This document shows, piece after piece, positions 6,328 through 35,466 of a stretch of DNA of 64,000 bases. The stretch covers positions 2,866 through 66,865 of the IMG/VR virus record IMGVR_UViG_3300031787_000096. One strand, given 5' to 3'. This stretch comes from a virus. Under the pieces are notes generated by a model that worked only from the letters and a program-made list of their open reading frames with translations, was not told the origin of the DNA and did not search any database. The position numbers were made by a program, and so were the translations under genes. Within the stretch, counting starts at the first letter, position 1. Each line of letters begins with the position of its first letter.

Positions 6328-6539
6328 CAGGCGTTGTGGGCGGTCATGGGGGGGGGGGGCTGGCCATGGGGCTGGCGATCACGCCACTCGGCCTGCCCCG
6401 GCTTGCGCACCGCGCAAGGGCTGACGCGAGTCGCTCCGCTGCGCTGCGCGACCCTTGCGCGGCGCTGGCGGCGCCGGGGCTGAACGGCGGTGTCGTTCGC
6501 CAGCCCAGCCATGGCCGCCACTCCCCTGGTCCGCGCCTG
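6328..6539 (+). promoter_or_regulatory. long imperfect hairpin, CAAGG/CCTTG family copy A
   Basis: CCGCGCAAGGG 6410-6420 pairs with CCCTTGCGCGG 6452-6462; outer arms GCCCCGGC/GCCGGGGC, GGCTGGCGA/TCGCCAGCC, GGCCATGG/CCATGGCC; loop GCTCCGCTGCGCTGCGC. Confidence 0.85.
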
Positions 6540-6723
6540 CCCGATCCGCATCATCTCGGTGCACCTGCTCGATGCCGCCGGCCAGCTGCTGCGGGTGCTG
6601 TTCCTCGATCGCGAGGGCCATATCAGCGCCCAGCCGCACTACGTGCCCAGGGCCGAGGCCCTGATCCTGGCCTCCAATCAGCAGCGAGTGCTTGGGCCCC
6701 AGGCCAGGGTGCACGTGCTCTGA
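6511..6723 (+). CDS. small hypothetical protein downstream of hairpin A
   Basis: MAATPLVRACPIRIISVHLLDAAGQLLRVLFLD; GC3-rich codons. Confidence 0.65.
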   Translation: MAATPLVRACPIRIISVHLLDAAGQLLRVLFLDREGHISAQPHYVPRAEALILASNQQRVLGPQARVHVL

Positions 6724-6935
6724 GGCGCCAGCGCCTCTCCCGGCTGGCACTGCCGGCCGGGATTTACCGGATCCCTGTCGGAGGGTTCCGCCTGGCGATC
6801 GGGCTGGGTATAAACCGGGAGCACCTTCCGGCCGATGCTCAGTTACACCGCCGCCTCCCATCGTGGCAACGATGGCCCCACAAGCGCCTGGGGCATCAGA
6901 GGGGGGTGCGCACGGGGAACCGGAGGTTGGTGAGC

Positions 6936-7394
6936 ATGCCAATCCCTGGGTTCAATCGGTATGGATTGCTACCTGACGGAGTTTACGGATGCACGATGTC
7001 AGAAGTGGAGGCAGCACTGGCATGGAATGACCAACGCCGCAGGCTGACTGATTCGCTGCAGGCGTTCATCAGAGATGAGCTCCTAGATCGCTTCACAACG
7101 ATTCCGCCACTTGTGCTCGATGGCAGCTATGTCACCTCAGAAGAGCACCCAGCAAATATCAACCTCGTGATTGAGCTGCAGGGCCTGCCGAGTGATCAGC
7201 AATGGGAGGGGCAAATGCTCTACGTGCGCAACGCCGAGCTGTTTGGCACCTACAACATTGACATGCGACCCAGCCTGGAGAAGCTTGGCCAGGACTTTGT
7301 CAGCTATTTCCGCTCCTGGGATCCCAAAAAGGCGCTTGAGAAGGAACTTGATTGCAAGCTCGTCAAGAAAGGGCTGCTGAGGTTGATGTCATGA
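6936..7394 (+). CDS. DUF6932-like nucleotidyltransferase-fold protein (DxD replaced by NxN)
   Basis: MPIPGFNRYGLLPDG, LDGSYVT..EHPANINLV, KKGLL; GGAGG upstream. Confidence 0.75.
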   Translation: MPIPGFNRYGLLPDGVYGCTMSEVEAALAWNDQRRRLTDSLQAFIRDELLDRFTTIPPLVLDGSYVTSEEHPANINLVIELQGLPSDQQWEGQMLYVRNAELFGTYNIDMRPSLEKLGQDFVSYFRSWDPKKALEKELDCKLVKKGLLRLMS

Positions 7395-8401
7395 GCAGCT
7401 GGATCGACATCGTCGAGGGCAAAGCCCGCATCATCCACCGAGAGCTCCTGGCAGCGCGAGAACTGGCCGTGCAGCTGGGCAAAGACCCTGAGATGGTCAG
7501 CACACCGTATTTCGAGCTGCTCGCCAGGCTCTATCGCGACGAATTCCCCTACGCATCACTGGCTGATCAGGCCGATCTGGTCGCTCGATTCACGGGGCCT
7601 GGTGTGATGACCCACGAGCCGCCCATCTCCCTTGTCACCGGCGCATTCTCGAAGCTGCGCACCCAGATTCAGAAGATCGCCAAGTCAATCGCAGGTCTCA
7701 GCGAAGAGAAGCGCGTTCGCTGGCCGGCAGACCTGGATCCGTATCTCTCAGGGCTGGCCTATGGAAGCCTGGTCGTGGGAATGCGGGTCCCGAGGCCAGA
7801 TGATGTCGGGGTCCAGGGGCAACTGGTGCTTGAGGGGGTGACCGATGGCCTCTATGAAGCCGTGCGCGAGGCGGTGTGCAGCCTCCCCTTGATTCCCAGG
7901 CTCATCAAAGATGAAGCCGTCAGTGAGGATGTCTATTCCCTGTTCCCTGACCCGGCTGTTCGCGACACCGTCATGGTGGCAGCCCAGAAGCTTGCACCCA
8001 CCCCCAGGAGCAAGGCCATCACCGAGCTGTTCCTCAGTTGTCCTGGGGAAAGCCAGGTGGCGCCCGCGGCACTCACCCGAGAGAGCGGCAAGATCCTGCA
8101 GCGATCCTTGGATCAGGCATCAGGGCAGCGCTTCCGGGGGACTGATGCCTTCGAGGGGGTGGTGCGCGAGATCGACCTGGATGCTCTGCGCTTTGAAATC
8201 CGAGGAGCCCGGTATCAACGCGGAATCCGCTGCATCTACGACGAACGGCATAAAGGGCAGGCGCGCGAGATCCTGGACTGCACTGTCCGGGTCAGTGGTA
8301 GCTACGAGGCCGCGGCCGATGAACAGCCCAGGCTTGTGGCGGTGGAATCGATCGAGATCCTCAAGAGACCACCGGAGCAGATGGCCCTGTTGGGGCAGTG
8401 A
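7391..8401 (+). CDS. hypothetical protein with C-terminal OB-like region, translationally coupled to the DUF6932-like gene
   Basis: ATGA overlap; FEGVVREIDLD...VRVSG...VESIEIL. Confidence 0.75.
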   Translation: MSSWIDIVEGKARIIHRELLAARELAVQLGKDPEMVSTPYFELLARLYRDEFPYASLADQADLVARFTGPGVMTHEPPISLVTGAFSKLRTQIQKIAKSIAGLSEEKRVRWPADLDPYLSGLAYGSLVVGMRVPRPDDVGVQGQLVLEGVTDGLYEAVREAVCSLPLIPRLIKDEAVSEDVYSLFPDPAVRDTVMVAAQKLAPTPRSKAITELFLSCPGESQVAPAALTRESGKILQRSLDQASGQRFRGTDAFEGVVREIDLDALRFEIRGARYQRGIRCIYDERHKGQAREILDCTVRVSGSYEAAADEQPRLVAVESIEILKRPPEQMALLGQ

Positions 8402-8433
8402 TCCCCTCTCCGACGCCTGCCAATCTCGGAAGC

Positions 8434-9414
8434 TCAGCCGAGCCCCACGTACACCGGCTGAAACCACTGCATCCGCCGGCTCTGACGCTTCTCGCCATGC
8501 AGCACGGTGTGCCAATGGCCCCGGCGCCAGTGGGGCCGGCGCGCGGTGCCGCTGCTGTTGGTGCCAGCCGTGGCCCCTTCTGAAGGAGCCCTTGGGGTGC
8601 GATCGAGCCGGAAGTCCTTGCCGATCCAGACCGGGCCTTGGGGTTTCACGGGGCCGGCGTCATCGGCACTGCCGGCCGAGAAACCCTTGCCGCTCGGCAC
8701 CTTGGCCGCCGGGCCCGTGGTGAGCAGCTCCGGTTGGTAGAGCTGCATCAGGAGGGCGTTGATCGCCAGGCCCTCCATCCGTTGGTTGGTGCTCTGCACC
8801 GCCTGTTCGTCCCACTGCCAGGCCGGGTGGCTCAGGTCTTCCACAGTCGGCTGCCGTTCGCCGATCTGCTGAAAGGAATGGCGGGTGAGATAGCTGGTGC
8901 CATCGAGGGCCAGGCCGACGCAGCTGATGCCGCTGATCCGCTTGGCCTCAGCCGGCAGCCAGTCGGCCATCGCTCGCAGGTCGGCCACGATCACCACCGG
9001 GATTGGCACGCCGTCTTCTGTGAACAGAGCTCCATCGGGAAGCATCAGCCGGAAGCAGGGCAGCACCAGCGGCAGCTCGTCATCCAGGTGGGGTGAGGGT
9101 GTGCGGCGGAAGGCCTCCGCCAGCTCCGGCGCCAGGAAGCGAGGCGGAGCTTCGACGATCCGCGCCCAGCGGCAGGTGGTGGCGGCCCAGAAGCCGATCG
9201 GATCGGCCAGCTCGTTCATCACCTCCGCGCCGGCCTCGATCAGGGCGGCGTAGGCCAGGTGATTGGCCCAGTGCTGGAAGCCCCGCGGGGAGCGGTAGCG
9301 GTGCTGCTCCTGCTGGATGTACGGATCCTGGCGGCGCAGTTCCGTGATCACCGTGCCGATCGGTGGCAGGTCCGCCTGGCTGGCCCGGATCGATTCAGGC
9401 GTCAGCCGGCTCAT
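8434..9414 (-). CDS. phage hypothetical protein with RPHWRRGHW motif
   Basis: C-terminal RRPHWRRGHW...WFQPVYVG motif. Confidence 0.75.
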   Translation of the reverse strand: MSRLTPESIRASQADLPPIGTVITELRRQDPYIQQEQHRYRSPRGFQHWANHLAYAALIEAGAEVMNELADPIGFWAATTCRWARIVEAPPRFLAPELAEAFRRTPSPHLDDELPLVLPCFRLMLPDGALFTEDGVPIPVVIVADLRAMADWLPAEAKRISGISCVGLALDGTSYLTRHSFQQIGERQPTVEDLSHPAWQWDEQAVQSTNQRMEGLAINALLMQLYQPELLTTGPAAKVPSGKGFSAGSADDAGPVKPQGPVWIGKDFRLDRTPRAPSEGATAGTNSSGTARRPHWRRGHWHTVLHGEKRQSRRMQWFQPVYVGLG

Positions 9415-12346: not shown

Positions 12347-15300
12347 ATGGAGATAATCGACAATTCCTCGGCCTTGCTAGGCGAAGACCTGAAGAAAGCA
12401 CTCGGGAAAGGAAGTCGATTAAGAATTGCCGCATCATGTTTTTCGATCTATGCCTTCGAAGCCCTCAGGCATGAGCTAAGCGCAATCGACGAGCTGAGAT
12501 TTATTTTTACAGCGCCAACATTTATTCCGGCTCAGGCGACAGATAGACTTAAAAGAGAGCACAGAGAGTTTCACATACCAAAGAGCAGCAGAGAAAGGGG
12601 GCTATACGGAACCGAATTTGAGATACAGCTACGCAACAAGCTGACACAAAGAGCTGTGGCACGTGAATGCGCCGAGTGGATACGCAGAAAGGCCAAGTTC
12701 AGCTCGAACACATCGCCCGCCCCAATGCAGCAATTTATCCACGTCTCACAGCCGGGGACGGATGCTGCATATATGCCGGTCAGCGGATTCACGATGGTTG
12801 ACTTGGGCTACCAGAGAGGTGATGCGGTCTCGAACTTTGTGACCAGGTTCAGCGAGCCTAGTCACACACAGGTCTACCTTCAGCTCTTTGAGCAGATTTG
12901 GGCAGACCCCGAGAAAGTAAAAGACGTAACCGAATTAATCTGCGATCACATAGCGTCAGTATATCAAGAAAACTCGCCAGAGAAAATCTATTTCCTCATT
13001 CTGCATAATATTTTTAGAGACTTTTTGGAGACGGTGGACGCCGACAGTCTCCCAAATGACCGAACTGGGTATCAAGAAACCAAGATCTGGCAGAAGCTCT
13101 TTAACTTCCAAAGAGACGCTGCCACAGGAATAATCAACAAACTAGAGTCTTTTAATGGGTGCATTCTTGCAGACAGCGTCGGCCTTGGCAAAACCTTTAC
13201 TGCACTCGCCGTCATTAAGTACTACGAGTTACGGAATAGATCCGTTTTGGTGCTCTGCCCCAAAAAGCTTGCGGATAACTGGCGCAACTACAACACGAAT
13301 CTGACAACAAACATATTTGCGAAGGATCGCTTTAACTATGATGTATTGAACCACACGGATCTCTCTCGTAGCTCCGGGGAGTCGTACGGAATCCCGCTGA
13401 ACCGAGTGAATTGGGGCAACTATGATTTAGTCGTGATTGACGAATCGCACAACTTTCGCAATAACGATATCTATAAAGATCGAGAGACGCGTTATCAGAA
13501 GCTTATGAACCAGGTGATTCGGGCAGGCGTCAAAACAAAAGTCTTGATGCTATCGGCGACTCCAGTGAACAATCGATTCACGGATCTCCGCAACCAACTT
13601 GCGCTTGCCTACGAGGGAGAGTCTGATGAACTTAGCAGGTATCTCAAAACAGAGGTCAGCATAGAAGAGATCTTTCGTCAGGCCCAGAGAGCATTCAACG
13701 AATGGTCATCTCAGTCTCCCGAAGAGAGGACGGCCGCTTCAATTCTGAATGCTCTCAGCTTCGATTTCTTTGAACTTCTTGATGCCGTCACGATAGCACG
13801 CTCAAGAAAACATATTGAGACTTTCTATGACACGAAGGATATCGGAAAGTTTCCACAGCGGCTGAAGCCACTCTCGTTTCACTGCCCGATCACATACCGC
13901 ACTGACGTGATGGGGCTGAATGATATTTTCGCCCAACTCTCCGTTCTCAAGTTGGCCGTCTATGCGCCGATCAGTTACGTACTGCCAAGTCGGCTTCGCA
14001 AATACGAGGAGATATATGACACACAAGTTGAAGGCGGAAGAGGAAAACTGAAGCAAGCTGATCGAGAGCGCAGCCTACAAGCTCTCATGACAACTAATCT
14101 GCTCAAGCGCCTGGAGAGCTCAGTTCAAGCCTTTCGGCTCACGCTCAGGGCTCTTTCCAGCAATATCTCGCGAAACCTGGAAGCCATTGAAACCTTTGAA
14201 AAGACAGGCCGTAATATTGAGGTGAGCGACTTCCTTGCCCAATCGAGTCAGTTTGATACAGAAGACGAAGATCTGTCTGGCCTTGATGAATTCACGGTAG
14301 GCAAGAAAATCAAGATCAGTCTTGCAGATATGGATCTGCCGACATGGAAGCATGACCTAGCTGCTGATCTGATCTTGATCGAGGACCTCATTGCCTCAAT
14401 GGAGAAGGTAGAACCTGGCGACGACTCCAAGCTGCAACATCTGCTCGGGCTGATCAAGCAGAAGGTTGATGCTCCATTGAACCCAGGTAACCGCAAGCTG
14501 CTGATCTTCACGGCTTTTGCTGACACTGCAAATTACCTCTTCGCTAATTTGGCGCCCTTTGCACAGCAGCTGGGACTCCACGTTGGGAGGGTTACGGGCT
14601 CCGAATCGCCCAAGACCACGCTGAAGAAGGTGTATGACTTCCAGGGTGTCCTGACGCTGTTCTCACCAAGATCGAAAGAAAAGGCCATTGTGTTTCCGGA
14701 CGAGACAGCGGAGCTCGACATTCTGATCGGGACTGATTGCATTTCCGAAGGCCAAAACCTACAGGACTGTGACTTTTTAATCAACTATGACATCCACTGG
14801 AACCCAGTCAGGATTATCCAGCGGTTTGGTCGGATTGACAGGATTGGCTCACCCAATAGCCAGATCCAGCTTGTTAACTACTGGCCAGACATCACGCTCG
14901 ATGAGTACATCAACCTCAAAGAACGTGTCGAGAACCGAATGGTCATCACGGATATCACCGCCACAGGCGACGATAACGTGCTCACTGCCAAGTCAAGCGA
15001 GATAACCTACCGAAAGGAACAACTCAAGCGGCTCCAGGACGAGGTCATCGAGCTTGAAGATGTAAAGGCCGGCATCTCTATTACGGATCTCGGGCTGAAC
15101 GATTTCCGAATGGACCTGCTCAATTACGTCAAGGAACATGGCGATCTCGATACCGTGCCATTCGGCATGCACGCTGTCGTGCCGGCACTGCCGGAGATGG
15201 GCCTCCAGCCAGGCGTCATCTTCGCGCTAAAGAACATTCACGACAGCGTCAATGTCAACCAGCAGAACCGGCTGCACCCGTTCTACCTTGTCTACATCGC

Positions 15301-25401: not shown

Positions 25402-25530
25402 GGGCTCGCCCCTCTGGGGCTTGCCCCCGTTGAAGGGGCTTGCTCGGGTCCTCTCCAGTCTGGGGCCTTCCTGACGTCAGGCCCCCACTGGGATCGGTCC
25501 CGTCGCTGCGCCGCTCTCGGCGCCGATTCC

Positions 25531-25854: not shown

Positions 25855-26037
25855 GGGCCAGGGCCCGCCGGGAGCCCTGATCCCGGCATTTCTCTCCTCT
25901 GGTGTGCCTCTTCGGCAGTGGGATTGGTCAGTCCGGGGCCGAGGGCCTGGTCATGCCGGCGGTGGCGAAGCGCTGCGGCAGGTCAATACAGGGTTGGCGG
26001 TGGTCCACGGCACAGGAGAGCACTTCCCCGATGGTCC

Positions 26038-26140
26038 GCCCCTCGGCCAGCAACCACCAGAGGCGGTGGGCTGGCCGCACCACAGCGTCAAGGCCAAGGC
26101 GAGCACCCAACGGATGGCCTTGACCCCGTGGCTCAGGGGC
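26038..26140 (+). promoter_or_regulatory. hairpin, CAAGG/CCTTG family copy D
   Basis: GTCAAGGCCA 26087-26096 pairs with TGGCCTTGAC 26115-26124; GCCCCT/AGGGGC. Confidence 0.75.
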
Positions 26141-26171
26141 GTGGAGGGGGGCGTTTCTTCTCCAGTTCGCC

Positions 26172-26354
26172 ATGCAAGCCACCACCACCGCTCCCTGCCG
26201 TTCCCGCCAGCGCAAGCCACAGCGCCGTCATCCAGTGCAGGTCACCCGGCAGCTGGTGCTCTTCTCCCTGCCGGTTCCGCAGCCGATCGGCTGCTGCTGG
26301 GATCTGATCTGCCCAGAGGCCGGCTGGGAGGAGCCCCTGCGCTGGAGCGTCTAG
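26172..26354 (+). CDS. small hypothetical protein downstream of hairpin D
   Basis: ATG 52 nt after TTGAC; contains QLVLF. Confidence 0.5.
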   Translation: MQATTTAPCRSRQRKPQRRHPVQVTRQLVLFSLPVPQPIGCCWDLICPEAGWEEPLRWSV

Positions 26355-26367
26355 AGCCAGCCGGCTC

Positions 26368-26595
26368 TCAGCGCCGTGCGCCCGTGGCGGGCTCGCGCGC
26401 GCTGGGCTCCTGGGCCTCGCCCTCCTGGAGGTGCTGCGTCCAGGCCTGACGCAGATCGTTGTGGGTCACCCGATACCCCAACCGCCGTGCCGTCTGCAGC
26501 AAGTCGTTGCGGCTGCGGCACCGACGCAGGACGCCCTGGAGTTGGGCACTGGCTTCTGCATCCACCACCAACCGCTCCAGATCCGACCAGCTCAT
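26368..26595 (-). CDS. Nif11-like leader-peptide family protein
   Basis: MSWSDLERLV...LLQTARRLGYRVTHNDL fits the Nif11 pattern (A..LGY.xT..DL). Confidence 0.75.
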   Translation of the reverse strand: MSWSDLERLVVDAEASAQLQGVLRRCRSRNDLLQTARRLGYRVTHNDLRQAWTQHLQEGEAQEPSAREPATGARR

Positions 26596-26723
26596 CTCTC
26601 AGCGCTCTGGGGATCTGGTCACCATCGCGCAGGTGGCGAGGTTCACCAGGTTCAGCGCGGCACGCTGGGCGCGATCCGTTGCATTCAGCTGGGAGGGCCT
26701 GAGGGGCTCTTGGATGCCGCGGC

Positions 26724-27956: not shown

Positions 27957-28858
27957 GACCCACCTCCTGCCTGCACAGCGGGTGCGTCTTTGGTGCGCAG
28001 CAGCAGGCCATGGCCGCCGATCGCCAGCCACTCGCTGCCATCGGGCGCCTTGTAGTAGCTCATCGCTGCGCTGCTGATGTTCACCGCCGCGAAGTCGGGG
28101 GGAAGGATGAGCGGCTCCCAGAACTGGGCCGGTTCGTTGGCGCTCTCGTAGTAGCTCCAGTCGGTGGTGGCGATCACCAGCTCGGCGGGCCGGCTGATCC
28201 GCACCACGGTGAGCAGGCCATCGCGCAGCAGGCCGCGGGAGCCGGAGGGCTGGCCGGAGCGCACGTTCCAGCTCACGGCCCGCAATCCGTCAAAGCTGGA
28301 GGTGGAGGGGGGTGTGGCCGCCAGGATCCAGTGGCCAGACACCTGATCACGAGCGATCAGCAGCGGCACCGCTTGCCTGTTCGTGAAGCGGTGCTGGCTG
28401 TAGGCGAAGAAGAAGTATTCAGCTCCCGGCGCCAGCGACCAGCCCACCTGGGCATTGAAGGGCAGCGGCGTGGTGCTCCAGGTGCCGCTGGTGTAGCCCA
28501 CGTCTCCAGCGGGGAACACCCAGCCCTGTTCGGTGTCAGCCCCCACGTAGGGCTCGTTGTTGCCAATCCCCGGGCGAATTTGAAGGGTGGTGCCGGTGAG
28601 GAACACCTCCAGCAGCAGCACCGCCGGATTGCCGCCCGGTGTGAGCTGGGAGAGGGTCGCCTCGATGCGCCAGCCGCAGGGATCAGTGGCGGTGGCATCC
28701 GGGTTGGGCGCGGTGGCAATGCGCAGCTGGTGCTGGCTCACCTGGGCGTTGGCCGCGGCGATCCAGTTATGCAGATAGCCGTTCACCTCGGTGGCCACTG
28801 ATGGCCAGGTGGTGTCGGTGCCGAGGCGGCTGATGTCGATCAGGGTGCGGTTGCTCAT
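27953..28858 (-). CDS. putative virion protein
   Basis: Translationally coupled within the structural operon. Confidence 0.7.
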   Translation of the reverse strand: MSNRTLIDISRLGTDTTWPSVATEVNGYLHNWIAAANAQVSQHQLRIATAPNPDATATDPCGWRIEATLSQLTPGGNPAVLLLEVFLTGTTLQIRPGIGNNEPYVGADTEQGWVFPAGDVGYTSGTWSTTPLPFNAQVGWSLAPGAEYFFFAYSQHRFTNRQAVPLLIARDQVSGHWILAATPPSTSSFDGLRAVSWNVRSGQPSGSRGLLRDGLLTVVRISRPAELVIATTDWSYYESANEPAQFWEPLILPPDFAAVNISSAAMSYYKAPDGSEWLAIGGHGLLLRTKDAPAVQAGGGS

Positions 28859-28868
28859 GGATCAGTCC

Positions 28869-29288
28869 TCAGGGCGCCAGCACGACGGCGGTCACGGTCA
28901 CGGCAATGGCGGCCTGGCTGGTGCCGGTGTTGCGCACCAGCGCCCGCAGCAGCGATGTGGCCGCAGCGGTTTCGGTGGAGAAGTAGGTGCCGCCCGGCGG
29001 TGCCGTGATCGTCTGGGCAGCTGCGGTGGTGACCAGATCGAGCAGCACCCCACTCCCCGGGGCCGGATCCTGGGTGATCGGGCGGCTGCCATCGGCCTCG
29101 CGTGCCGCCCCCGAGCTGTAGAAGCTCACCCAGCCCGGTGCATCGGTGCTCACCGCCAGGAAATGGCCCAGCCGCCCCAGGCCGGGGAGGTCGAGCAGGG
29201 CGCTGGCACCCGGCAGCAGGGGCGTGGTGGTGTGGGTCACGCTCACCTGCTGGCCAGGGACCTGGGTGCGCGGCAGCCAACTGGCCAT
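28869..29288 (-). CDS. putative virion protein
   Basis: WVSFYSS..AREAD..R..TQDPAPGSGVLLD motif; structural operon. Confidence 0.7.
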   Translation of the reverse strand: MASWLPRTQVPGQQVSVTHTTTPLLPGASALLDLPGLGRLGHFLAVSTDAPGWVSFYSSGAAREADGSRPITQDPAPGSGVLLDLVTTAAAQTITAPPGGTYFSTETAAATSLLRALVRNTGTSQAAIAVTVTAVVLAP

Positions 29289-29309
29289 CGCTGCTGTTCT
29301 CCCTATCGG

Positions 29310-30554
29310 TTACGGCAGCACCTCGATGCGACGGATCGCCCGCACCTGGGTGATGAAAGCGCTCGTCTTGGACTCGGCGTACTGATCTCCCATGTAGGTC
29401 ATCCGCAGATAGGCCGTGCCACTGGCGGCCTGGGTGGAGGTCCAGTGGAAGAAGGGATCGTCGCCGACGTTCTCGTCGAAGTGCTTGAGCGTCTCCGCCC
29501 CACCAGCGCGGAAGGCGAGCACACTCGTCAGCGCTGGGTTGCTGTCGGTGTAGTTGCCGCCCGCCGGCACTGCATAGGGGTTGGCGCCATAACCCGCCCC
29601 GGAATAGGTGCCGTTGGCGGTCGCCTCCGGCTTGAAGGCCCGGTACAGCACATCCCACTCCTGGGTGGCGGGCAGGTACCAGTCGTCGTAACCGCCGATG
29701 TTGAGCGAGCGACAGAACTGCGCCGCCGGATGGCTGGCGTTGTTCATCGCCTCGCTGTTCGACCAGCCATCGAACACGCTCGTCGTGCCGGTGCTGGCGG
29801 TGTTGGCGGTCTTCCAGGCCACGTTCAGCAGCGAGCCGGCGGCCTTGGGCGAAATGATCAGCGCATGGGTGGCCACGCCATTGGCGGTGTGGCTGATCAG
29901 GCCGGCGTAGTAGCCGCCCTGGAAGGAGCTGCCGATGGCGGGCAGATCAGCCACGCGGATCGGGCCGAGCTGATAGACGGTGCCCGTGAGCAGGTCGAGG
30001 TAGAGGTCGCCATCGACCGCACCAGGGATGTTCAGCGGTGGAGCGCCGCTGCCGGTGAACCAGCCGGTGCCGCGGGGACCGATCGCCCCATCGATGCCGG
30101 CAGGTCCCTGAATGCCCTGGGGTCCTTGCGGCCCAGCCGGGCCCTGAGGCCCTGTCGCCCCAGCAGGGCCCGCCACACCCGCAGGGCCTTGCGGGCCCTG
30201 GATCGAGCCGCCATTCACCCAGCTGCTGGTGCCGCTGTCCCACACCCGCAGCGAGTCGTCGGCCTGCACCAGATAGGCGTCGCCCTGGGCAGCATTGGCG
30301 GGCAGGTTGGCGATCGCCGCCACCGAACCCTTGAAGTTGATGCCGATGCCGGCTGGACCCTGGATGCCCTGCGATCCGGTCGGACCAGCCGGACCAGAAG
30401 GGCCAGCGGGACCCTCGGGGCCCTGCAGACCGGCCGGGCCCTGGGGTCCCTGGGGGCCAGCAGGCCCCTGGTTCCCCTGAACGCCGGGCGAACCCTGCGG
30501 GCCGGCAGGTCCCTCAGGGCCGCGGATTGAACCGGTGGAATTCCAGGACCCCAT
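29310..30554 (-). CDS. collagen-like fibre protein with C-terminal DUF1566/Lcl (C-type lectin fold) domain
   Basis: Gly-X-Y repeats; [31 protein letters not shown]. Confidence 0.85.
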
Positions 30555-30581
30555 GGCAGCCAGACGGGTGTTGCGTCATCG

Positions 30582-30591
30582 GCTATTGCCA
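30582..30591 (-). promoter_or_regulatory. putative late promoter motif TGGCAATAGC
   Basis: Upstream of start 30554; one of six copies. Confidence 0.6.
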
Positions 30592-30788
30592 GGGAGCGGG
30601 ATTGTCCCCATCGGGGGACGGCCAAGGCTGGCAGGGTCCGAATAGAGGTGGAGTGTTGCCGGCGCAGGCTGCGCCACCCCAGCCACCTGCTGATCCAGAC
30701 CGGCGACGCCGGGCGCGTGCAGTTCCGCGCCCCAGCTTTCCCAAGCCCGGCCCAGCCTCCTGTCTTCCCTTCCGGAAGGCAGGAGGCC

Positions 30789-31175
30789 TTACTGCATCGC
30801 GATCGAAACCGTCAGTACCGCCGGTGAGCCAGAGGCAGTAGTGATCTGCAGCCACAGCCAGTGACCTGCGGGGATTTCTGGGACCTGAAAACTCGTGCTC
30901 GCACTGCCGGTCGTGGTGCTGGTGACGGTGATCGGATCCGTCGTGGCAGCTGTGCCTGTGGCGGAAACATCGGCGCCATGGCGCAGTGAGAAGGAGACAC
31001 TGGGGCTGGTGCCGCCGCTGAGCACGGCATCGACGCGGCTGATGGTCAGGTCCTGGGGTGCCCGCAGCAGGATGCGCCGGTCATTGGCCTGGGGGCTCGC
31101 CAGCAAGGCCAGCTGGGGCGGCATCGGTCCAGCGGGTCCGAGCAGCGAGGCGAGCTGACGCCAGGAGAGGGGCAT
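30789..31175 (-). CDS. putative virion beta-sandwich protein
   Basis: LTISRVDAV...IPAGHWLWLQI...LTVSI. Confidence 0.7.
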   Translation of the reverse strand: MPLSWRQLASLLGPAGPMPPQLALLASPQANDRRILLRAPQDLTISRVDAVLSGGTSPSVSFSLRHGADVSATGTAATTDPITVTSTTTGSASTSFQVPEIPAGHWLWLQITTASGSPAVLTVSIAMQ

Positions 31176-31196
31176 GGAGCACAGGCGGCATCACTG

Positions 31197-31206
31197 GCTC
31201 TTGCCA
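31197..31206 (-). promoter_or_regulatory. putative late promoter motif TGGCAAGAGC
   Basis: Upstream of start 31175. Confidence 0.55.
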
Positions 31207-31272
31207 GCGGCCGTCAGACGGGCTGCCCAACTCCAAGCGAACTCCTAATCGACGCCAAATTTGGAGTTGCGC

Positions 31273-31971
31273 TCAGCGCTGCTCCAGGAGCTGGCCGAGT
31301 CGCTGGGACATCAGCTGCAACTGCTTCTGCTGCCGCTGGTGCAGGCCACCAGCGGTGTCTGGCCGCCCTTGGTCATAGAGCGCCAGCAGTAGCCCCTGGC
31401 TGCGCCCTGCACTGGTGCAACCCACAGGACAGACAAGGATCACGCCGTTGCTGCCGGCCGGCGAACGCACCGCCATCGGCAGAGCGGCGGATGCGTCGCT
31501 GGCGCACAGGCCCAGGGCGGCGTGGCCGAGGGCCTCCGCCATCTCCACACCCAGCAGCGGTTGCTGACCCGGCGTCAGCGCTAGTTGGCCATGGCGCCCG
31601 TCGGCTGCCAGCACGGTGACGCTGCCGCCGCCCTCCCACTGCAGCAGCGCCAGGGTGTGGAGACCATCACCACTGCTTTCGATCGCGCTGCGCAGCAGGA
31701 TTTGCACCTGCCCCTGATGCGCCCTCACCTGCTCCTGCAGGGTGGCGGCGGTGGTGGTGCTCATCCGTTTGGCCAGATCCGGCTGCAGGGTGATCAGCAG
31801 CCAGGCGGTGTAGAGCACCAGGCCCAGCAGCACGATGCGCGAGAGCCGGTAGAGCAGCTGCCAGGGATTGCGGGCATCGAGCACATCCCCCACAGCTTTC
31901 TGCAGGGCATCGCTGGTGGCGCGGGTGAACACCTCCACCCGCTCGGCCAGGCCCTTGTTGGTGTCGGGCAC
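31273..31971 (-). CDS. single-TM membrane protein with GAF-like C-terminal region
   Basis: TM segment IVLLGLVLYTAWLLI; ILVCPV...GLLLALY. Confidence 0.6.
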   Translation of the reverse strand: MPDTNKGLAERVEVFTRATSDALQKAVGDVLDARNPWQLLYRLSRIVLLGLVLYTAWLLITLQPDLAKRMSTTTAATLQEQVRAHQGQVQILLRSAIESSGDGLHTLALLQWEGGGSVTVLAADGRHGQLALTPGQQPLLGVEMAEALGHAALGLCASDASAALPMAVRSPAGSNGVILVCPVGCTSAGRSQGLLLALYDQGRPDTAGGLHQRQQKQLQLMSQRLGQLLEQR

Positions 31972-31976
31972 GGCGA

Positions 31977-32753
31977 TCAGGCGGAGAGTTCGTAGACCTG
32001 GCCGCTGAGGCGGTCCAGGTAGAAGTCCCCTACCGCGGGAGCAGGCTGCAGGGTGGATGGCGGCGGGCCGTCACCGGAGTACCAGCGGGTGGCGCGGCTG
32101 CCGACACCCGATTCCTGCACCACCGCCAGGGCGGGTTCGCCGCTGCTCGGGTCGGGCATGAAACCCAGGCCGCCATTCGGGTGAAGCCGCAGGCGCCAGA
32201 CCACGGCATGGCGGCCGTCGTAGGGCTCGCCGCTGATGCCGCCGCTGGGGATCAGCGGCTGGATCACACCACCGGTGCCGCCGCCGCCGTCGCGGTTGTT
32301 CAGCAGCTGCTGGGGCGGCACCGGGCACCCCACCAGGGCAACGCGGAGGGTGGCGATCAGCATCCCCAGCTGCACCTGCACGGTCACATCGGCCCGCTGG
32401 GCGTAGACGTGCCGCAGCCGAGGCGCCTGCCTGGAGACGGCAGGCCAGGGGACGACGTTGCTGCTGCCATCACCCCAGGTCACCGAGATCGGTGAGGGGA
32501 TGGTCTGCCTTGGGTTGATCAGCAGCTCGATGGCGGCTGAGCCGATCGGCTCATTCCAGCGGCTGTCGGCCGGCAGCCAGAAGAGTTCGAGGTCATCGGC
32601 AGGGATGGGGCCCTTGCGGTAGCCCAGCTCGGCCCAGCGGCTGAACTCCATCGGCAGCACCCACTGCTCTACCCCTGGGCAGCCGACGGGTGGAAGCAGC
32701 CGTACCCGTTGACCGCCCACGGTGCTTGGTTGCTGGGGCAGGGGGTAGGGCAT
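31977..32753 (-). CDS. putative virion decoration protein (PKD-like domain)
   Basis: VTWGDGS...RHVY; C-terminal WYSGDGPP..GDFYLD..GQVYEL. Confidence 0.7.
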   Translation of the reverse strand: MPYPLPQQPSTVGGQRVRLLPPVGCPGVEQWVLPMEFSRWAELGYRKGPIPADDLELFWLPADSRWNEPIGSAAIELLINPRQTIPSPISVTWGDGSSNVVPWPAVSRQAPRLRHVYAQRADVTVQVQLGMLIATLRVALVGCPVPPQQLLNNRDGGGGTGGVIQPLIPSGGISGEPYDGRHAVVWRLRLHPNGGLGFMPDPSSGEPALAVVQESGVGSRATRWYSGDGPPPSTLQPAPAVGDFYLDRLSGQVYELSA

Positions 32754-32772
32754 GGCCAGCAGCTCGGGTGGT

Positions 32773-33270
32773 TCAGATCAGCGGGTCGTCAAAGAGGTCA
32801 TCCGGCAGGGCGGTCAACGACAGCTCACCGTCTGCAGTGGAGTCGTCACCTGGATTGGTGGTGGACTCTGCCGCCAGGTCAGCGGCTACCGGGGGCTCAG
32901 AGTCAGCCGCGTCCGCCTCAGCAGTCGTCCCGGTTGGCTCTGGCGTGGCCTCAATGGCTGCAGGGGGCTGCTCCTGCTCTTCCTTGCGGCGGCGTCCGCG
33001 CCGACCGCGGGTTGATGCAGGTTTTGCATCGTCCGGCTCCAGCAGCTGGCTCATATCTGCGGCGATGGGAGCCGGCGGCTCGGCTGCGGCGATCCCAGCC
33101 GATGACGCTCCGGCTGTGGCTTCAGCCCCAGCCACGCGCCAACCCAGCCCCAGCCAGCCGGGCAGGTGCACCGGCCAGACATAGCGCTCCTGGTTGCCCA
33201 GGCGGATGCGCAGCATCCCAGCGGGAAGCGGACCCTGAGCGGCCATTCCCGTCATCTGCGGTCCTGCCAT
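32773..33270 (-). CDS. hypothetical protein with acidic disordered tail
   Basis: Immediately downstream of the capsid genes. Confidence 0.65.
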   Translation of the reverse strand: MAGPQMTGMAAQGPLPAGMLRIRLGNQERYVWPVHLPGWLGLGWRVAGAEATAGASSAGIAAAEPPAPIAADMSQLLEPDDAKPASTRGRRGRRRKEEQEQPPAAIEATPEPTGTTAEADAADSEPPVAADLAAESTTNPGDDSTADGELSLTALPDDLFDDPLI

Positions 33271-33272
33271 GG

Positions 33273-33710
33273 TCAGGCCGGCAGGGTGGCGGTCAGGCCG
33301 ACGACCATCCCCTCCGGGGTCGAAGGGGTGACGACGGCCTTGGCGAAGCAGAGCGCCGGCAGGTCGGCGTTGTCTGCATCAGCGGCATCGAGCAGGATGT
33401 CGTGGCCGGAGATGTAGGCCTCCACCCGGCCGCCCTCTGCCGGCACAGCGACGGTGGCGACGGGGACAAAGGTGCCCATCGTTCCGTCACGCAGCTCAGG
33501 CGCCAGATGCAGCACCACCGTCACCGCAGCGCTATGGCCAGGGTGGGAGACCAGCAGCGAGAACTGCGATGCGGCGTCGAGCTTGGTGTTGAGCTTGACC
33601 ACCTCACCGCTGGTGAACACCTTCTCGGTGTCGCGGGTGGCGGAACGGTTGGTCCAGCCCACCAGCACCGTGGCGGCATCGAGGAGGGCGTTGGCTTTGA
33701 GGCGAGTCAT
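33273..33710 (-). CDS. putative capsid cement/decoration protein
   Basis: Beta-rich 145-aa ORF directly after the major capsid gene. Confidence 0.65.
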   Translation of the reverse strand: MTRLKANALLDAATVLVGWTNRSATRDTEKVFTSGEVVKLNTKLDAASQFSLLVSHPGHSAAVTVVLHLAPELRDGTMGTFVPVATVAVPAEGGRVEAYISGHDILLDAADADNADLPALCFAKAVVTPSTPEGMVVGLTATLPA

Positions 33711-33762
33711 CGGTCGATCTCCAGATCAGGGGGATGGTGTGCGGCTCAGGCAATGAGGGCGA

Positions 33763-34680
33763 TCAAGCGATCGGAGCAATGGAATGCAGGCGCCCAGCAG
33801 CGCGGGGGTGCATGACGCCAAAGCCCACGTACCAATCGATCCGGGTACGAAACACCGGGGCGTCGGGCACTTCGCCGAGGTCGCGGACGGAGATGCCGTA
33901 GCGGCCCTGGAACGGCCCCTGCAGGCCAGTCACCGCCTGATCCCCGAAGGTGCAGCAGTAGATCGAGCTGGTGCCTCCGGCTTCCCCGTAACCCAGCACC
34001 TCCAGGCCCTGGGCGTCACGGTCGACGGTGAGGATCTGGCACTCCTGGTAGTGATGCACCATCACGCCCAGGTTGTTGGTGGAGACGTTGTAGACGCCCT
34101 GGCCGACGGTCTGGCGGGCAAGGGCGTTGAGCTGGCGGCGCATCGCCTTGCTCATCACCAGATATTTCCTGCCGCCGTAGGAGTTCACCGAGTCGATCAG
34201 CTCATCGAGCTTGTCGAAATCAAGCGCCCCGCCACCGTTGTTCAGCGCCATCTCGCTGCCGGGGGCAAGGCGCTTGGCCAGGCCGTCAAAGCCCCGGCCC
34301 TGGCTGGCGGTGGCATCGCCGTTGATCAGCGCCGCCTCCAGGGTGAGGCGCATCGAGCGGACCTTCATCTCGGTCTGCGCAGCTCGGGCCTCAGGACCCT
34401 GCAGGTCGACGATCGAGCGGTCCACATCCACGTCTCCACCGAACAGGTGGACGGCTTCTGACTGGGGGTCCACGACGCCGTAGCTCTGCTTGTAGCCCTC
34501 GTTCACCGCCCGGAAGCCCACCGAGGGGAGCTCCTTCTCGACGGAATAGAAGAGGCCGCCGCCGGCGATGTTCATGAACGGCAGCCAGCTGAGCAGTTCG
34601 CCCTCAGCGAAGGTCTTGATCACCGCCAGGTGCTCCAGGCGGGTCTCGTACTTGGCTGCCTCGATCAGGGTGAGGCCCAT
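33763..34680 (-). CDS. major capsid protein (HK97-fold)
   Basis: LPSVGFRAVNEGY, GGDVDVDR, INGD...GFDGL, LDELID, RTRIDWYVG; follows the scaffold gene. Confidence 0.85.
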   Translation of the reverse strand: MGLTLIEAAKYETRLEHLAVIKTFAEGELLSWLPFMNIAGGGLFYSVEKELPSVGFRAVNEGYKQSYGVVDPQSEAVHLFGGDVDVDRSIVDLQGPEARAAQTEMKVRSMRLTLEAALINGDATASQGRGFDGLAKRLAPGSEMALNNGGGALDFDKLDELIDSVNSYGGRKYLVMSKAMRRQLNALARQTVGQGVYNVSTNNLGVMVHHYQECQILTVDRDAQGLEVLGYGEAGGTSSIYCCTFGDQAVTGLQGPFQGRYGISVRDLGEVPDAPVFRTRIDWYVGFGVMHPRAAGRLHSIAPIA

Positions 34681-34722
34681 CGGTGCTGCACTCCCGGGGT
34701 CCGGCCCCAGATCACGTCACCG

Positions 34723-34732
34723 GCTATTGCCA
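34723..34732 (-). promoter_or_regulatory. putative late promoter motif TGGCAATAGC
   Basis: Upstream of the major capsid start at 34680. Confidence 0.6.
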
Positions 34733-34778
34733 TGGGGAGTGAGCAGCGCGGCGGGGATGCAGCCACCAGCTCCTGAAC

Positions 34779-34930
34779 GGGCTCCGCTCCGGCCCTCCTC
34801 ATGGTCGGGGGGCGCGTCAAGGGTGATACGAGCCCGCCACTGGGACGTTGGCTGCGCTGCGCTCCGCGTCTCAGTTGTGGACGGGCCCTTGACCCGCCCC
34901 CCGCCGGCTGAGGGGTCCTACGCGGAGCCC
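34779..34930 (+). promoter_or_regulatory. long imperfect hairpin, CAAGG/CCTTG family copy E
   Basis: GTCAAGGG 34816-34823 pairs with CCCTTGAC 34886-34893; GGGGGGCG/CGCCCCCC; GGGCTCCGC/GCGGAGCCC; loop GCTGCGCTGCGCTCCGC. Confidence 0.85.
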
Positions 34931-34934
34931 TCCC

Positions 34935-35120
34935 ATGGCCCCTCTGTCCCGCAAAGCTCAGCTGCAGCAGTTCTCCTGGCAGGTGCTGGAAGATCTGGCT
35001 TTCTGCAGCGGGCGCTGGCCACGGCTGGCTGAGCTGGCCTCACAGGTGCTGTTCGAGCAGCAAGCAGCCGCCCCGGCGGTGCCGGTTGATCCAGAGCTGG
35101 AGGCACTGCTGCCCTTCTGA
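34935..35120 (+). CDS. small hypothetical protein downstream of hairpin E
   Basis: 61 aa ending DPELEALLPF. Confidence 0.6.
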   Translation: MAPLSRKAQLQQFSWQVLEDLAFCSGRWPRLAELASQVLFEQQAAAPAVPVDPELEALLPF

Positions 35121-35285
35121 GGGCCAGGGCCAGCAGCCGGCGGGGCTCCCCAGGGCCCTGCCTTTCTGCTGGTCGCGACCGCTGGGGGGGGGCGGGGGGA
35201 GACCTCAGCAGAGCCAGCGGACCTGGCAGCCCACCGATCCACCGGGAGCGGATCAAACGACCGAGCTGGCGGGGGTTCAGCACGC

Positions 35286-35466
35286 GCGGGGCCGGAAGGC
35301 CTCACGGTCGGCGAGGGGGAGAAGAGGGGCACCGCTGCCCCAGCCGTCTCGCCCTGGCAAGGATCGGGCCAGGCGCCTCTGCGAGGCGTCCTTGCCAGGT
35401 CGCTACAGCCGGGGCCTGACGCGGGTGTCCCTCGCCTCATTCGTGATGGCCTCCTTTTCTCCCCGC
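35286..35466 (+). promoter_or_regulatory. long imperfect hairpin, CAAGG/CCTTG family copy F
   Basis: CCTGGCAAGGA 35353-35363 pairs with TCCTTGCCAGG 35389-35399; GGCGAGGG/CCCTCGCC; TCACG/CGTGA; AGGCC/GGCCT. Confidence 0.85.

Follow-up and report, generated by a model that had tools for sequence, protein, structure and literature searches.

Hairpins and genes of the prophage

The window, a 64,000-nucleotide stretch of viral DNA (positions 2,866 to 66,865 of IMG/VR record IMGVR_UViG_3300031787_000096), is spanned by a prophage of 66.7 kb that is integrated at a tRNA-Arg of a freshwater cyanobacterium and flanked by att repeats of 45 bp; relatives were found in Cyanobium, Synechococcus and Vulcanococcus genomes. 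A Pfam scan of its ORFs detected terminase, portal and capsid genes, in agreement with an earlier note on this DNA, made from the letters alone, which had described a terminase/portal phage. The search for a relaxase suggested in that note came back empty: no relaxase, T4SS or rolling-circle Rep was detected among the 50 ORFs scanned with Pfam, and the same 50 ORFs included no integron-type integrase or IS200/IS605 transposase.

Six long hairpins sharing a CAAGG/CCTTG helix had been described, and their sequences and coordinates were as reported. The distances from the TTG of the 3' arm to the start codon (56, 54, 46, 52, 46 and 54 nt for A to F) were reproduced exactly, each hairpin sitting 46–56 nt before a start codon on the + strand. 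The features are as follows.

6328–6539, + strand: hairpin A (type A), core CAAGG 6415–6419 and CCTTG 6453–6457; GGTGTC box at 6489–6494, + strand
6511–6723, + strand: gene A, 70 aa, no family match, conserved in 15 related loci
21609–21733, + strand: hairpin B (type B/F), core 21653–21657 and 21686–21690; GGGGTT box at 21720–21725, + strand
21742–22368, + strand: sigma factor gene behind hairpin B, with regions 2 and 4
24529–24664, + strand: hairpin C, core 24558–24562 and 24628–24632; GGGTC box at 24655–24659, + strand
24676–25401, + strand: DUF7227 gene behind hairpin C, GTG start (E 6.8e-73)
25867–25887, + strand: terminator-like hairpin with T-run, closing the sigma-to-25854 operon upstream of D
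26038–26140, + strand: hairpin D, core 26089–26093 and 26118–26122; GGCGTT box at 26150–26155, + strand
26172–26354, + strand: small ORF D, 60 aa, its protein kept in one related locus (L288) despite indels
34779–34930, + strand: hairpin E, core 34818–34822 and 34887–34891; GGGGTC box at 34912–34917, + strand
34935–35120, + strand: gene E, 61 aa
35139–35162, + strand: terminator-like hairpin with T-run after gene E, the top-scoring site in the region
35286–35466, + strand: hairpin F (type B/F), core 35358–35362 and 35390–35394; GGTGTC box at 35424–35429, + strand
35446–35658, + strand: gene F, 70 aa

Pfam and the related loci bore out the view that the hairpins head a dispersed set of + strand genes including a sigma factor, although gene A is corrected here to the 70-aa frame listed rather than a long ORF. 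The A, D, E and F genes are small ORFs whose protein products are conserved in relatives. The product of the sigma gene at 21742–22368 is closest to the SigB/F/G family, below that family's cut-offs, and both phage sigma factors are nearest to this family, which reads GGGTA-type -10 boxes. Hairpins B, D and F stand after terminator-like hairpins (in relatives, a strong T-run terminator ends gene A before hairpin B) and A and E occupy divergent spacers, so that a new transcription start would be needed at these sites. Hairpin C lies within a + strand operon, immediately 3' of a lysozyme gene, and since no terminator precedes it, it would be transcribed as RNA anyway. Hairpins E and F lie within the minus-strand structural operon and D at a convergent junction.

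The window has 20 CAAGG..CCTTG pairs lying 10–110 nt apart; pairing extends to 8 or more of the 12 flanking positions in these six alone and to 3–7 in the remaining 14. Hairpin E exceeds all other inverted repeats in length (140 in total) and is, after GC correction, the most stable 120-nt window in the entire 66.9-kb record, where A ranks fourth and F, C and D, but not B, appear in the listed top set. Against dinucleotide shuffles, the RNA-fold z-scores of the + strand were -5.5 (A), -1.4 (B), -3.6 (C), -4.6 (D), -5.5 (E) and -3.8 (F), and those with DNA parameters -1.95 (B), -3.6 (C), -4.3 (D) and -4.7 (E); by these z-scores the hairpins are more stable than shuffled sequence, B alone falling short of significance on folding energy. 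Hairpin B is the most conserved copy across relatives, including its 5'-side bulge ATCGGGCCA. The apex of A, which has orthologues in two related loci (L035 and L174), contains GCTSC pentamer repeats, while the apex loop of E is invariant in five orthologues. The recurring loops noted earlier were also recovered: GCTGCGCTGCGC (at most one mismatch) occurs on the + strand solely in A, C and E, with two further minus-strand matches elsewhere, and CAAGGATCGGGCCA matches exactly solely in B and F.

A second element, a GGNGTY/GGGTY box that starts 20–23 nt (about 22) ahead of the start codon, occurs in 10 of 12 gene families led by a hairpin versus 2 of 43 control starts, and lies 22–25 nt from the core in types C, E, G and X2 versus 30–36 nt in A, B, D and F. 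The claim that no canonical -10 box is visible was confirmed, with no sigma-70-like promoter in 20800–36800 or 5500–8000, no -10 box on either hairpin arm and not one TA dinucleotide in the hairpin B block; nor was a -35/-10 pair at a fixed spacing common to all types recognisable.

Conservation of the hairpins in related prophages

The relatives were sampled as 79 sigma-gene loci totalling 731,558 bases, in which 82 core-bearing hairpins were found; 69 were kept as members by judgement and 13 dropped as unlike any type or inside genes, which with the six in the window gives 75 copies. The core is invariant and the orientation is that of the sigma gene in all 75, and a downstream ORF is present in 73, one of the two copies lacking a callable ORF sitting at the end of its locus. 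The TTG lies 43–60 nt from the true start in at least nine gene families, and hairpin type tracks the downstream gene, each type being tied to one family (73/75 copies).

The earlier observation that arm sequences differ between copies while pairing is kept is corroborated by compensatory changes. Across 68 distinct copies, 73.9% of cells pair; the figure is 39–53% when partners are slid and 51.2 ± 1.3% over 500 shuffles of the columns, none of which exceeded 54.4%. Changes on both sides were seen in 13 of 13 tested pairs. Alignment A8, which comprises 18 copies of types B, F and D, shows pairing in 83.1% of cells versus 24–46% when slid, and its covariation score (0.203 versus 0.114) was reached by none of 500 shuffles. 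In a diverged orthologue of E (in G001) and one of F (in G004), the sequence differs but the stem is retained. These comparisons indicate that hairpin pairing is under selection across related viruses. A search model built from the B, F and D copies (threshold at least 48.5 bits) found 35 places in five whole host genomes, 16 of them in same-strand groups on one contig with spacing as in the window prophage. Hairpins A–F gave no Rfam match at gathering score, and the two stretches holding B–F gave no Rfam match with E≤1 on the hairpins, suggesting that they are not a known RNA.

In 22 distinct B loci, conservation begins about 44 nt 5' of the core, with weak conservation some 15 nt earlier, and continues to the ATG, whereas the sequences upstream are mutually unrelated. 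In front of B, C, E and F, homology with four relatives (G001–G004) starts or resumes 2–27 nt short of the hairpin, the breaks lying at 21589/21607, 24502, 34763 and 35272 in the window, and extra genes in relatives are located exactly at these breaks. Cassette A, 15 kb from hairpin B in the window, abuts it in L174 and was found in three different contexts, and the conservation of hairpin B exceeds that of the sigma gene it precedes. Irrespective of the upstream context, the hairpin base is where the conserved unit starts.

Competing readings of the hairpins

The best explanation, which we hold tentatively, is that the hairpins head portable expression cassettes in which a folded palindrome controls the start of transcription. 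Each cassette would comprise a long imperfect palindrome of 75–210 nt, in which the 5-bp CAAGG/CCTTG helix is invariant and the asymmetric bulge is specific to the type, together with the GGNGTY box some 22 nt ahead of the start codon and a single gene (for a small protein, a phage SigF-like sigma factor or DUF7227). In at least E here, and for gene A in several relatives, the gene is followed by a terminator-like hairpin. The palindrome may be the cassette's own transcription-start control region: an alternative holoenzyme, in the most plausible case one formed with the SigF-like sigma of the phage itself, would find its start signals in the sequence-constrained 3' arm (TTGNC core, G-rich DNA and GGNGTY box), and the 5' arm would be kept merely for pairing with the 3' arm. 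By folding, be it as DNA (extruded or single-stranded) or as nascent RNA, the palindrome would gate initiation and insulate its cassette from the surroundings. Against this reading stand the missing -35/-10 pair at a fixed spacing across all types, the transcription that hairpin C would receive in any case, and the energetic cost of extruding long imperfect palindromes from duplex DNA; we know of no single-stranded stage in a terminase-packaged phage.

A close rival, although on balance rather unlikely, is a sense-RNA leader, in which the whole palindrome is transcribed as a 5' UTR or, for C, an intercistronic spacer, folds in the mRNA and acts post-transcriptionally, for example as a site for a double-strand-specific RNase, a 5' stabiliser or a site for a phage regulator reading the core helix and bulge. 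The sense orientation of all copies and the position of C in an operon with no terminator before it fit such a leader, as do the folds, in which the stems of A and F extend through the start codon and that of E stops 5 nt short; stems of 28–60 bp would, moreover, be natural RNase III substrates. No transcription start was observed, the RNA-library contigs spanning the whole region but being unable to show RNA ends; one of 365 nt spans 34770–35132, exactly the full hairpin E and gene E. If this contig derives from RNA, the 5' arm of hairpin E lies inside the transcript, which would count against a transcription start there and is a weak point in favour of the leader.

The strand comparisons (RNA and DNA energies, one-sided variants) were not significant, with a slight lean to the template strand. 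Both strands fold roughly equally well: energies with RNA parameters were mixed by strand, types C and G folding about 7 kcal/mol better as + strand RNA, as a leader would predict, while with DNA parameters 59 of 68 copies favoured the template strand, by 1.9–4.8 kcal/mol versus a random-window spread of 3.3. An RNA fold on the sense strand is not reflected in an excess of G.U-type states, since the one-sided variants comprised 15 A.C versus 9 G.T states and the G.T excess over A.C was no larger than in slid controls. Nor is hiding of the start site family-wide: the cost of opening positions -15 to +6 was 24.2 (A), 9.8 (B), 13.7 (C), 2.4 (D), 18.5 (E) and 10.5 (F) kcal/mol, as a set not above the background of 36 control genes (12.8 ± 4.9 kcal/mol). 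The 5' flank of hairpin B showed no covariation with the start region, its own pairs and the cross pairs being worth -27.6 and -27.7 kcal/mol, respectively. A leader would also require every context to supply its own promoter in upstream DNA that is unrelated from one context to the next.

It is improbable that the hairpins are recombination or mobility sites serving as joints for cassette exchange between phages, either by homologous exchange at conserved regulatory repeats (proposed for PeSLs) or through a site-specific enzyme acting on folded DNA (attC-like). The homology breaks and extra genes just before B, C, E and F, the three contexts of cassette A and the conservation of B beyond that of its sigma gene would suit such a role, and several such prophages can occupy one host (six sigma loci in one Cyanobium strain). 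However, the junctions lie beside the hairpins rather than within them, chimeric hairpins were not seen, the arms covary and type matches gene in all but two of the copies, and cassette order is conserved. The core does not match the GTTRRRY box of integron attC sites, and the scanned ORFs held neither of the enzymes sought.

Still less probable are terminators or insulators, GC-rich hairpins that block read-through both ways and keep the cassettes and the opposing late operon independent. The similar folding of both strands and the placement of D, E and F accord with this, and to our knowledge cyanobacteria lack Rho, so that hairpins would matter for termination. Yet none of the six is followed by a T-run, genuine T-run terminators are already in place ahead of D and F and behind gene E, and the invariant core, single orientation, fixed start distance and GGNGTY box would be left unexplained. 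Operators in duplex DNA, in which a dimeric repressor or activator would bind the inverted 7-mers GTCAAGG and CCTTGAC as its half-sites and the potential to form a hairpin would be incidental, are very unlikely: the core is invariant and the two core-to-box distance classes differ by about one helical turn, but half-site spacing varies from 18 to 87 nt and compensatory changes keep at least eight flanking pairs that a duplex operator would not need.

Least likely of all is a true Frpo/ssi-type promoter, in which a stem that mimics duplex DNA, formed on single-stranded DNA during entry or replication, would be recognised by the sigma-70 holoenzyme of the host. Long hairpins before small, early or accessory genes on one strand, with a -35-like hexamer (here TTGAC or TTGCC) in the stem, are common to both, as far as the excerpt of PMC11541004 describes conjugative plasmid leading regions, and DNA parameters give the slight template-strand gain; judged by that same excerpt, the defining features are absent, as the present hairpins have no -10 box or UP element and their element has no single-stranded entry stage known. 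The proposal of ssDNA-promoter-like cassettes thus holds for one hairpin family heading dispersed genes and fails for the Frpo/ssi link; with arms that covary and stability beyond that of shuffles, these comparisons do not refute the earlier idea as a whole. Membership of that class was rejected on the lack of a -10 box, of any relaxase, T4SS or Rep in the Pfam scan of 50 ORFs, and of conjugative character in an element that is tRNA-integrated and carries terminase, portal and capsid genes.

Known analogues and significance

Like the T4 late promoters embedded in translation-control hairpins of genes e, soc, 49 and I-TevI, the present hairpins lie beside a start codon with a possible start signal within, an arrangement that would make expression depend on where the transcript starts; the T4 cases are defined by start-site occlusion, whereas occlusion is not a family feature here. 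The RNase III processing sites of the phage T7 early region are likewise co-oriented imperfect hairpins with asymmetric internal loops between or before genes, but lack an invariant core set at a constant distance from a start codon.

In the parts of PMC3203893 available, the SAS of Cluster K mycobacteriophages is a 13-bp sequence, GGGATAGGAGCCC, that includes a ribosome-binding-like GGAG and lies a few bp from the start codon, and the ESAS has arms of 17 bp. In both systems a subset of genes has a short asymmetric box close to the start codon, at a fixed distance upstream of it, with copies in one orientation and conserved across related phages, although the box here is GGNGTY at about -22 and the stems are far longer (28–60 bp) with an invariant 5-bp core (PMC3203893, in part). 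Host, phage group and sequence being unrelated, SAS/ESAS is an analogue of this family and does not share membership with it. The PeSL cassettes of T4-type phages are composite terminator/promoter units, according to extracts of PMC4122927 and PMC2839356. As the former extract describes them, they too are repeated units of a stem-loop and start signals before small accessory ORFs, and they adjoin insertions, deletions and replacements between close relatives, so that PeSLs and the present hairpins would both act as portable regulatory cassettes; in a PeSL, however, the stem-loop is short and precedes an evident sigma-70-like -35/-10 pair and Shine-Dalgarno sequence, whereas the palindrome here fills the entire spacer and no sigma-70 promoter is recognisable (PMC4122927, in part).

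The six hairpins belong to a conserved family in freshwater picocyanobacterial prophages, which we read, with some reserve, as portable expression cassettes. Were the sigma gene's own cassette read by the SigF-like sigma, the phage sigma would regulate itself. Because pairing has been kept by evolution in many related viruses, the hairpin family appears, from comparative evidence, to be a new gene-control signal.

Six hairpins and their family in related viral DNA

All six hairpins described in the earlier note were found in the window, and the distances from the TTG of each 3' arm to the start of the gene behind it agreed to the nucleotide:

6328-6539, plus strand: hairpin A, TTG 56 nt before a small-protein gene
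21609-21733, plus strand: hairpin B, TTG 54 nt before the sigma-factor gene
24529-24664, plus strand: hairpin C, TTG 46 nt before the DUF7227 gene
26038-26140, plus strand: hairpin D, TTG 52 nt before a small-protein gene
34779-34930, plus strand: hairpin E, TTG 46 nt before a small-protein gene
35286-35466, plus strand: hairpin F, TTG 54 nt before a small-protein gene

The window has 20 CAAGG..CCTTG pairs, and in these six alone were 8 or more of the 12 flanking positions paired; the plus-strand occurrences of the recurrent loop and bulge sequences were confined to them. Their stems span 28-60 bp and the palindromes reach to within 0-32 nt of the start codon; hairpin E was the longest of 140 inverted repeats, and no 120-nt stretch elsewhere in the record was as stable once GC content had been corrected for. 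Stability beyond that of shuffled sequence, on which the earlier note had staked its proposal, was seen for five hairpins (z-scores of -3.6 to -5.5 with RNA parameters against dinucleotide shuffles) and not for hairpin B (-1.4), with DNA-parameter fold energies giving similar values.

In types A, C and E the apex consists of consecutive GCTSC pentamers (window 6433-6449, 24593-24609 and 34851-34867; L035:4336-4368, in a related locus; and many other loci). In type A it holds one or three units (23 or 33 nt), and the order of GCTCC and GCTGC varies among copies, a pattern suggestive of loop slippage. The idea that the hairpins contain a conserved upstream ORF was rejected by eye: frame and stop position differ among E orthologues and apex lengths vary by 1-10 nt, so that the hairpins are taken to be non-coding.

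Orthologous hairpins are present in four closely related viral contigs (G001-G004), and a wider set of 79 sigma-gene loci (731,558 bases) contained 82 core-bearing hairpins, of which 69 were kept as family members and 13, lying inside genes or unlike any type, were excluded. At least ten kinds were distinguished: types A-F, a type G and three single variants. When the flanks of 68 distinct copies were aligned without gaps, the five core pairs were invariant and pairing outside the core was found in 73.9% of cells, compared with 39-53% when the partner was slid by 1-3 columns and 51.2 +/- 1.3% in 500 column shuffles; changes on both sides were found in all 13 pairs tested in these copies. Pair counting in 18 copies of types B, F and D gave 83.1% paired versus 24-46% in the slid controls, with a covariation score of 0.203 versus 0.114 that none of 500 shuffles matched. 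The most diverged orthologues, E in G001 (75% identity) and F in G004 (73%), keep their stems through different sequences, and the apex loop of E is unchanged to the letter. The compensatory changes on which the earlier note had made its case depend are thus present in the homologues.

Automatic alignment of all types displaced the cores by one column between types, and a covariance model was therefore built on types B, F and D only. As it scored types A, E and C at just 20.7, 14.6 and 10.7 bits, it is no family-wide detector; it returned no additional strong member from the window and 35 matches from host genomes, counted whether inside a prophage or elsewhere. Exact-pattern scans of viral contigs (type-2 core, type-1 loop) gave almost entirely chance matches, with family hairpins only in loci L174 and L242.

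At gathering score, Rfam matched only a tRNA in the whole window (the sole Rfam threshold applied to hairpin A), and at E<=1 it matched nothing in 21500-26300, while in 34650-35750 its one hit was weak, unrelated and inside gene E. No description of the hairpin family was found in literature on Cyanobium and other picocyanobacterial prophages, on inverted repeats or sigma factors of Synechococcus prophages, or on DUF7227, and the extract of PMC2784084 has no bearing on it. We conclude that the hairpins form a genuine and conserved cis-regulatory family that has apparently not been described before.

Hairpin-led genes and the prophage that carries them

All 75 copies face in the same sense as the sigma gene, including E and F within an opposing structural operon, and a downstream ORF is present for 73 of them, the 3' core lying 43-60 nt from the true start. 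Hairpin type tracks gene family: type A precedes a 70-aa protein, B the sigma factor and C DUF7227, while types D, E, F and G are each paired with a small-protein family of their own; genes A and F gave no usable protein match in Pfam, PHROGs or Atlas. A second signal, not mentioned in the earlier note, is a GGNGTY or GGGTY box. Of 12 gene families led by a hairpin, 10 have it, beginning 20-23 nt ahead of the start codon, whereas only 2 of 43 control starts from the window's high-GC part do. Its copies in the window are:

6489, 21720, 24655, 26150, 34912 and 35424: GGNGTY boxes, about 22 nt before the starts of the hairpin-led genes

No core-to-box spacing common to all hairpin types was found; the distances fall into two classes, 22-25 nt (C, E, G and the variant X2) versus 30-36 nt (A, B, D and F). 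The regulon marked by the hairpins comprises the phage sigma factor, DUF7227 and seven or more families of small uncharacterised proteins. Both the anatomy and the dispersed, sigma-containing regulon first proposed for this DNA hold.

The genome in which this regulon lies has the following landmarks:

Record bases 83-127 (upstream of the window) and window 63874-63918: 45-bp direct repeat, 3' part of a tRNA-Arg(TCT) gene
62455-63747, minus strand: ORF of 430 aa, integrase-like by position, adjoining the tRNA-Arg repeat
55150-55877: FitA-like antitoxin and PIN-domain toxin pair, within the prophage
21742-22368, plus strand: sigma-like protein with regions 2 and 4, closest to the SigB/F/G family
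46082-46726, minus strand: sigma-like protein with region 2 only, closest to the SigB/F/G family, adjoining the terminase gene
12347-21459: low-GC (48-52%) four-gene island between cassette A (hairpin and gene) and hairpin B
42530-45958, strand opposite to the surrounding structural genes: second low-GC (45-50%) island, one DEAD/ResIII helicase gene (1142 aa)
34716-34725, minus strand: TGGCAANAGC motif between the capsid start and hairpin E

With the repeat at both ends, almost the whole 66,865-base record, 64 kb of which is the window, is a single prophage of about 66.7 kb integrated at tRNA-Arg(TCT). The 430-aa ORF has no family match in Pfam or NCBIfam. Minus-strand genes include a large terminase, a portal protein (DUF4055) and a GP7/SU10-type major capsid protein, and the prophage further encodes a primase-helicase, a helicase, the toxin-antitoxin pair and the two sigma-like proteins. 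A relaxase, suggested in the earlier note as something to look for, was not among the 50 ORFs scanned with Pfam, nor was a type IV secretion gene or a rolling-circle Rep; the scan took in all but about 18 of the predicted ORFs, the exceptions being for the most part structural ORFs at 26.7 to 33.7 kb. Megablast of window 21500-36500 against phage records gave no matches. The TGGCAANAGC motif is kept at the matching place in L249, L251, L259 and other related loci, where it reads GCTATTGCCA or CTGTTGCCA on the plus strand.

Homologues of the sigma gene (65-94% identity) are found in the 79 loci, which come from genomes of Cyanobium, Synechococcus, Vulcanococcus and their relatives; one genome often contains several. 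Cyanobium sp. Cruz-8D1, Cyanobium sp. FGCU6, Vulcanococcus limneticus LL and Synechococcus sp. CS-1330 are the strains behind loci L252, L259, L264 and L268. Nine of these loci (L253, L254, L263, L269, L286, L297, L299, L300 and L321) come from genome bins titled Bradyrhizobium, Chitinophaga, Pseudanabaena or Microcystis, in which the sigma locus is 75-88% identical; these contigs are probably mis-binned, or the bins contaminated. A single Cyanobium genome (G006, containing L252) has 14 strong matches to the B/F/D model and six sigma loci, so several related prophages seem to share one host.

Across 22 distinct B loci, the sequence becomes conserved sharply at about 44 nt before the core, after a weak onset some 15 nt further out, and stays so as far as the ATG, and the DNA upstream of the hairpin is unrelated among contexts. 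Homology of the window with G001-G004 sets in or returns 2-27 nt ahead of hairpins B, C, E and F, and exactly at these junctions, just before E and F, G002 and G003 carry extra minus-strand genes. Two such inserted genes encode a 290-aa protein with a transglutaminase-like Cys motif, recognised by eye (L248:1670-2542, minus strand), and a 201-aa protein (L249:18745-19350, minus strand). Cassette A directly adjoins hairpin B in L174, which has no counterpart of the island at 12347-21459; in the window the two are 15 kb apart, a distance that includes this island, whose genes encode an SNF2-type helicase, a DUF4391 protein, an N6/N4 DNA methylase and a ResIII helicase that bears a restriction endonuclease domain at its C terminus. 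Terminator-like hairpins with T-runs lie upstream of D and F and after gene E. These boundaries, insertions and terminators indicate that each hairpin with its gene is a self-contained unit and that cargo lands in the spacers ahead.

DNA or RNA

We favour the reading that the palindrome is a transcription-start control element travelling with its cassette, because the hairpins lie after terminators or within divergent spacers, because conservation has a sharp left boundary, and because two elements fixed in sequence occupy the 3' arm while the 5' arm is under a mirror-image constraint. Members of the SigB/F/G family read GGGTA-like -10 boxes; since the box begins GGGT or GGNGT and the phage sigmas are closest to that family, it is a reasonable guess that the regulon, the sigma gene included, is under phage sigma control.

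Nearly as likely is a leader in the sense RNA, acting in processing, in stability or as the binding site of a regulator, and hairpin C, if no other, must occur in RNA form. Fold energies computed with RNA parameters are mixed and on the whole similar for both strands: C and G gain about 7 kcal/mol on the sense strand, A and D about 3 on the opposite one. DNA parameters make the template (minus) strand more stable than its partner in 59 of 68 copies; in five of six types the margin is 1.9-4.8 kcal/mol, compared with -0.34 +/- 3.31 for random windows. One-sided departures from Watson-Crick pairing within types comprised 15 A.C states (wobble on the template strand) versus 9 G.T, a difference that is not significant. 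Contigs from four RNA-library runs cover 30 of 30 bins, although as contigs they carry no readable RNA ends, strand or level, and where contigs end near cassette E, the assembly may just as well have broken at a mosaic junction.

Three further ideas were set aside. An excess of G.T pairs as evidence for the plus strand recurred in the slid controls. Sequestration of the start codon as a common function was dropped since the opening costs of B, D and F are within background and only those of A and E are high; for the family as a whole, the ribosome-binding window is hidden no more than in ordinary GC-rich leaders. Covariation of the variable 5' flank of hairpin B with the first sigma codons was no better for own pairs than for cross pairs.

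A more specific form of transcription-start control, which we consider rather unlikely, is that the palindromes are structured-DNA promoters, in which RNA polymerase with the prophage SigF-like sigma would read a folded core together with the GGNGTY box. The template strand would fold, or a cruciform would be extruded, and the result would be a self-contained, context-independent regulon of at least nine gene families in a terminase-packaged double-stranded DNA phage. If true, this would add a third kind to the hairpin promoters of coliphage N4 and of plasmid Frpo, and the first such promoter to be linked to a non-primary member of the sigma-70 family.

Relation to known systems and significance

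The nearest design is that of the SAS/ESAS elements of Cluster K mycobacteriophages, in which a conserved short box stands at a fixed distance before a subset of start codons, with inverted repeats of variable spacer ahead. The likeness is one of design only: sequence and distance differ, the 13-bp GGGATAGGAGCCC consensus and the 17-bp ESAS half-sites are absent from the window hairpins, and the host here is a cyanobacterium. Also close in design are the PeSL of T4-type phages, portable units of stem-loop and promoter that lie, like hairpins B, C, E and F, at boundaries of insertion, deletion or replacement between close relatives. In PeSL, however, a sigma-70-like early promoter stands between the stem-loop and the Shine-Dalgarno sequence with its start codon, and the window hairpins lack such a promoter. 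As sequences, sizes and hosts differ, the family falls outside both systems.

Kinship with the single-stranded-DNA promoters Frpo/ssi, proposed in the earlier note, did not survive. According to PMC11541004, their stem imitates a duplex promoter, with a -35 TTGACA and a -10 TATAAT at sigma-70 spacing. The window hairpins do have -35-like TTGAC, TTGCC or TTGCG; the promoter scan of 20800-36800 and 5500-8000, however, returned no candidate site, TA dinucleotides are absent from the B block and no shared -10 was seen by eye on either arm, in agreement with the earlier remark that a canonical -10 is missing. Frpo/ssi hairpins are made for the template strand, towards which the strand tests on the present family lean slightly but not significantly, and are active on single-stranded and inactive on duplex templates. 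They lie in the leading region of a conjugative element, beside oriT and relaxase, whereas the present family lies in a tRNA-Arg-bounded prophage with terminase, portal and capsid genes.

Integron attC sites, which have the inverse core sites RYYYAAC and GTTRRRY at the hairpin base and lie 3' of promoterless cassettes next to intI, were rejected, as the window hairpins precede their genes and carry the invariant CAAGG/CCTTG helix mid-stem, and the only integrase-like ORF is the unmatched one at 62455-63747. The early promoters of coliphage N4, which are small hairpins with a stem of 5-7 bp and a loop of 3 nt, recognised by a giant virion RNA polymerase, were dismissed on sizes, the stems here being 28-60 bp and the largest ORF (1142 aa) a helicase.

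Freshwater picocyanobacteria (Cyanobium, Synechococcus, Vulcanococcus) often bear several such prophages per genome, and to our knowledge almost nothing is known of how these are regulated. Two sequence signals, together with a structure clearly under selection, set the bounds of the regulon. The family has no entry in RNA or promoter databases and gives a handle for detecting and classifying such prophages. Its cassettes mark spots of cargo insertion, such as that of the restriction-modification-like island at 12347-21459, which bears on the acquisition of defence genes, and the hairpin-led genes are candidate early or accessory genes. The family is also a clean system for asking whether a palindrome ahead of a gene acts as DNA or as RNA.
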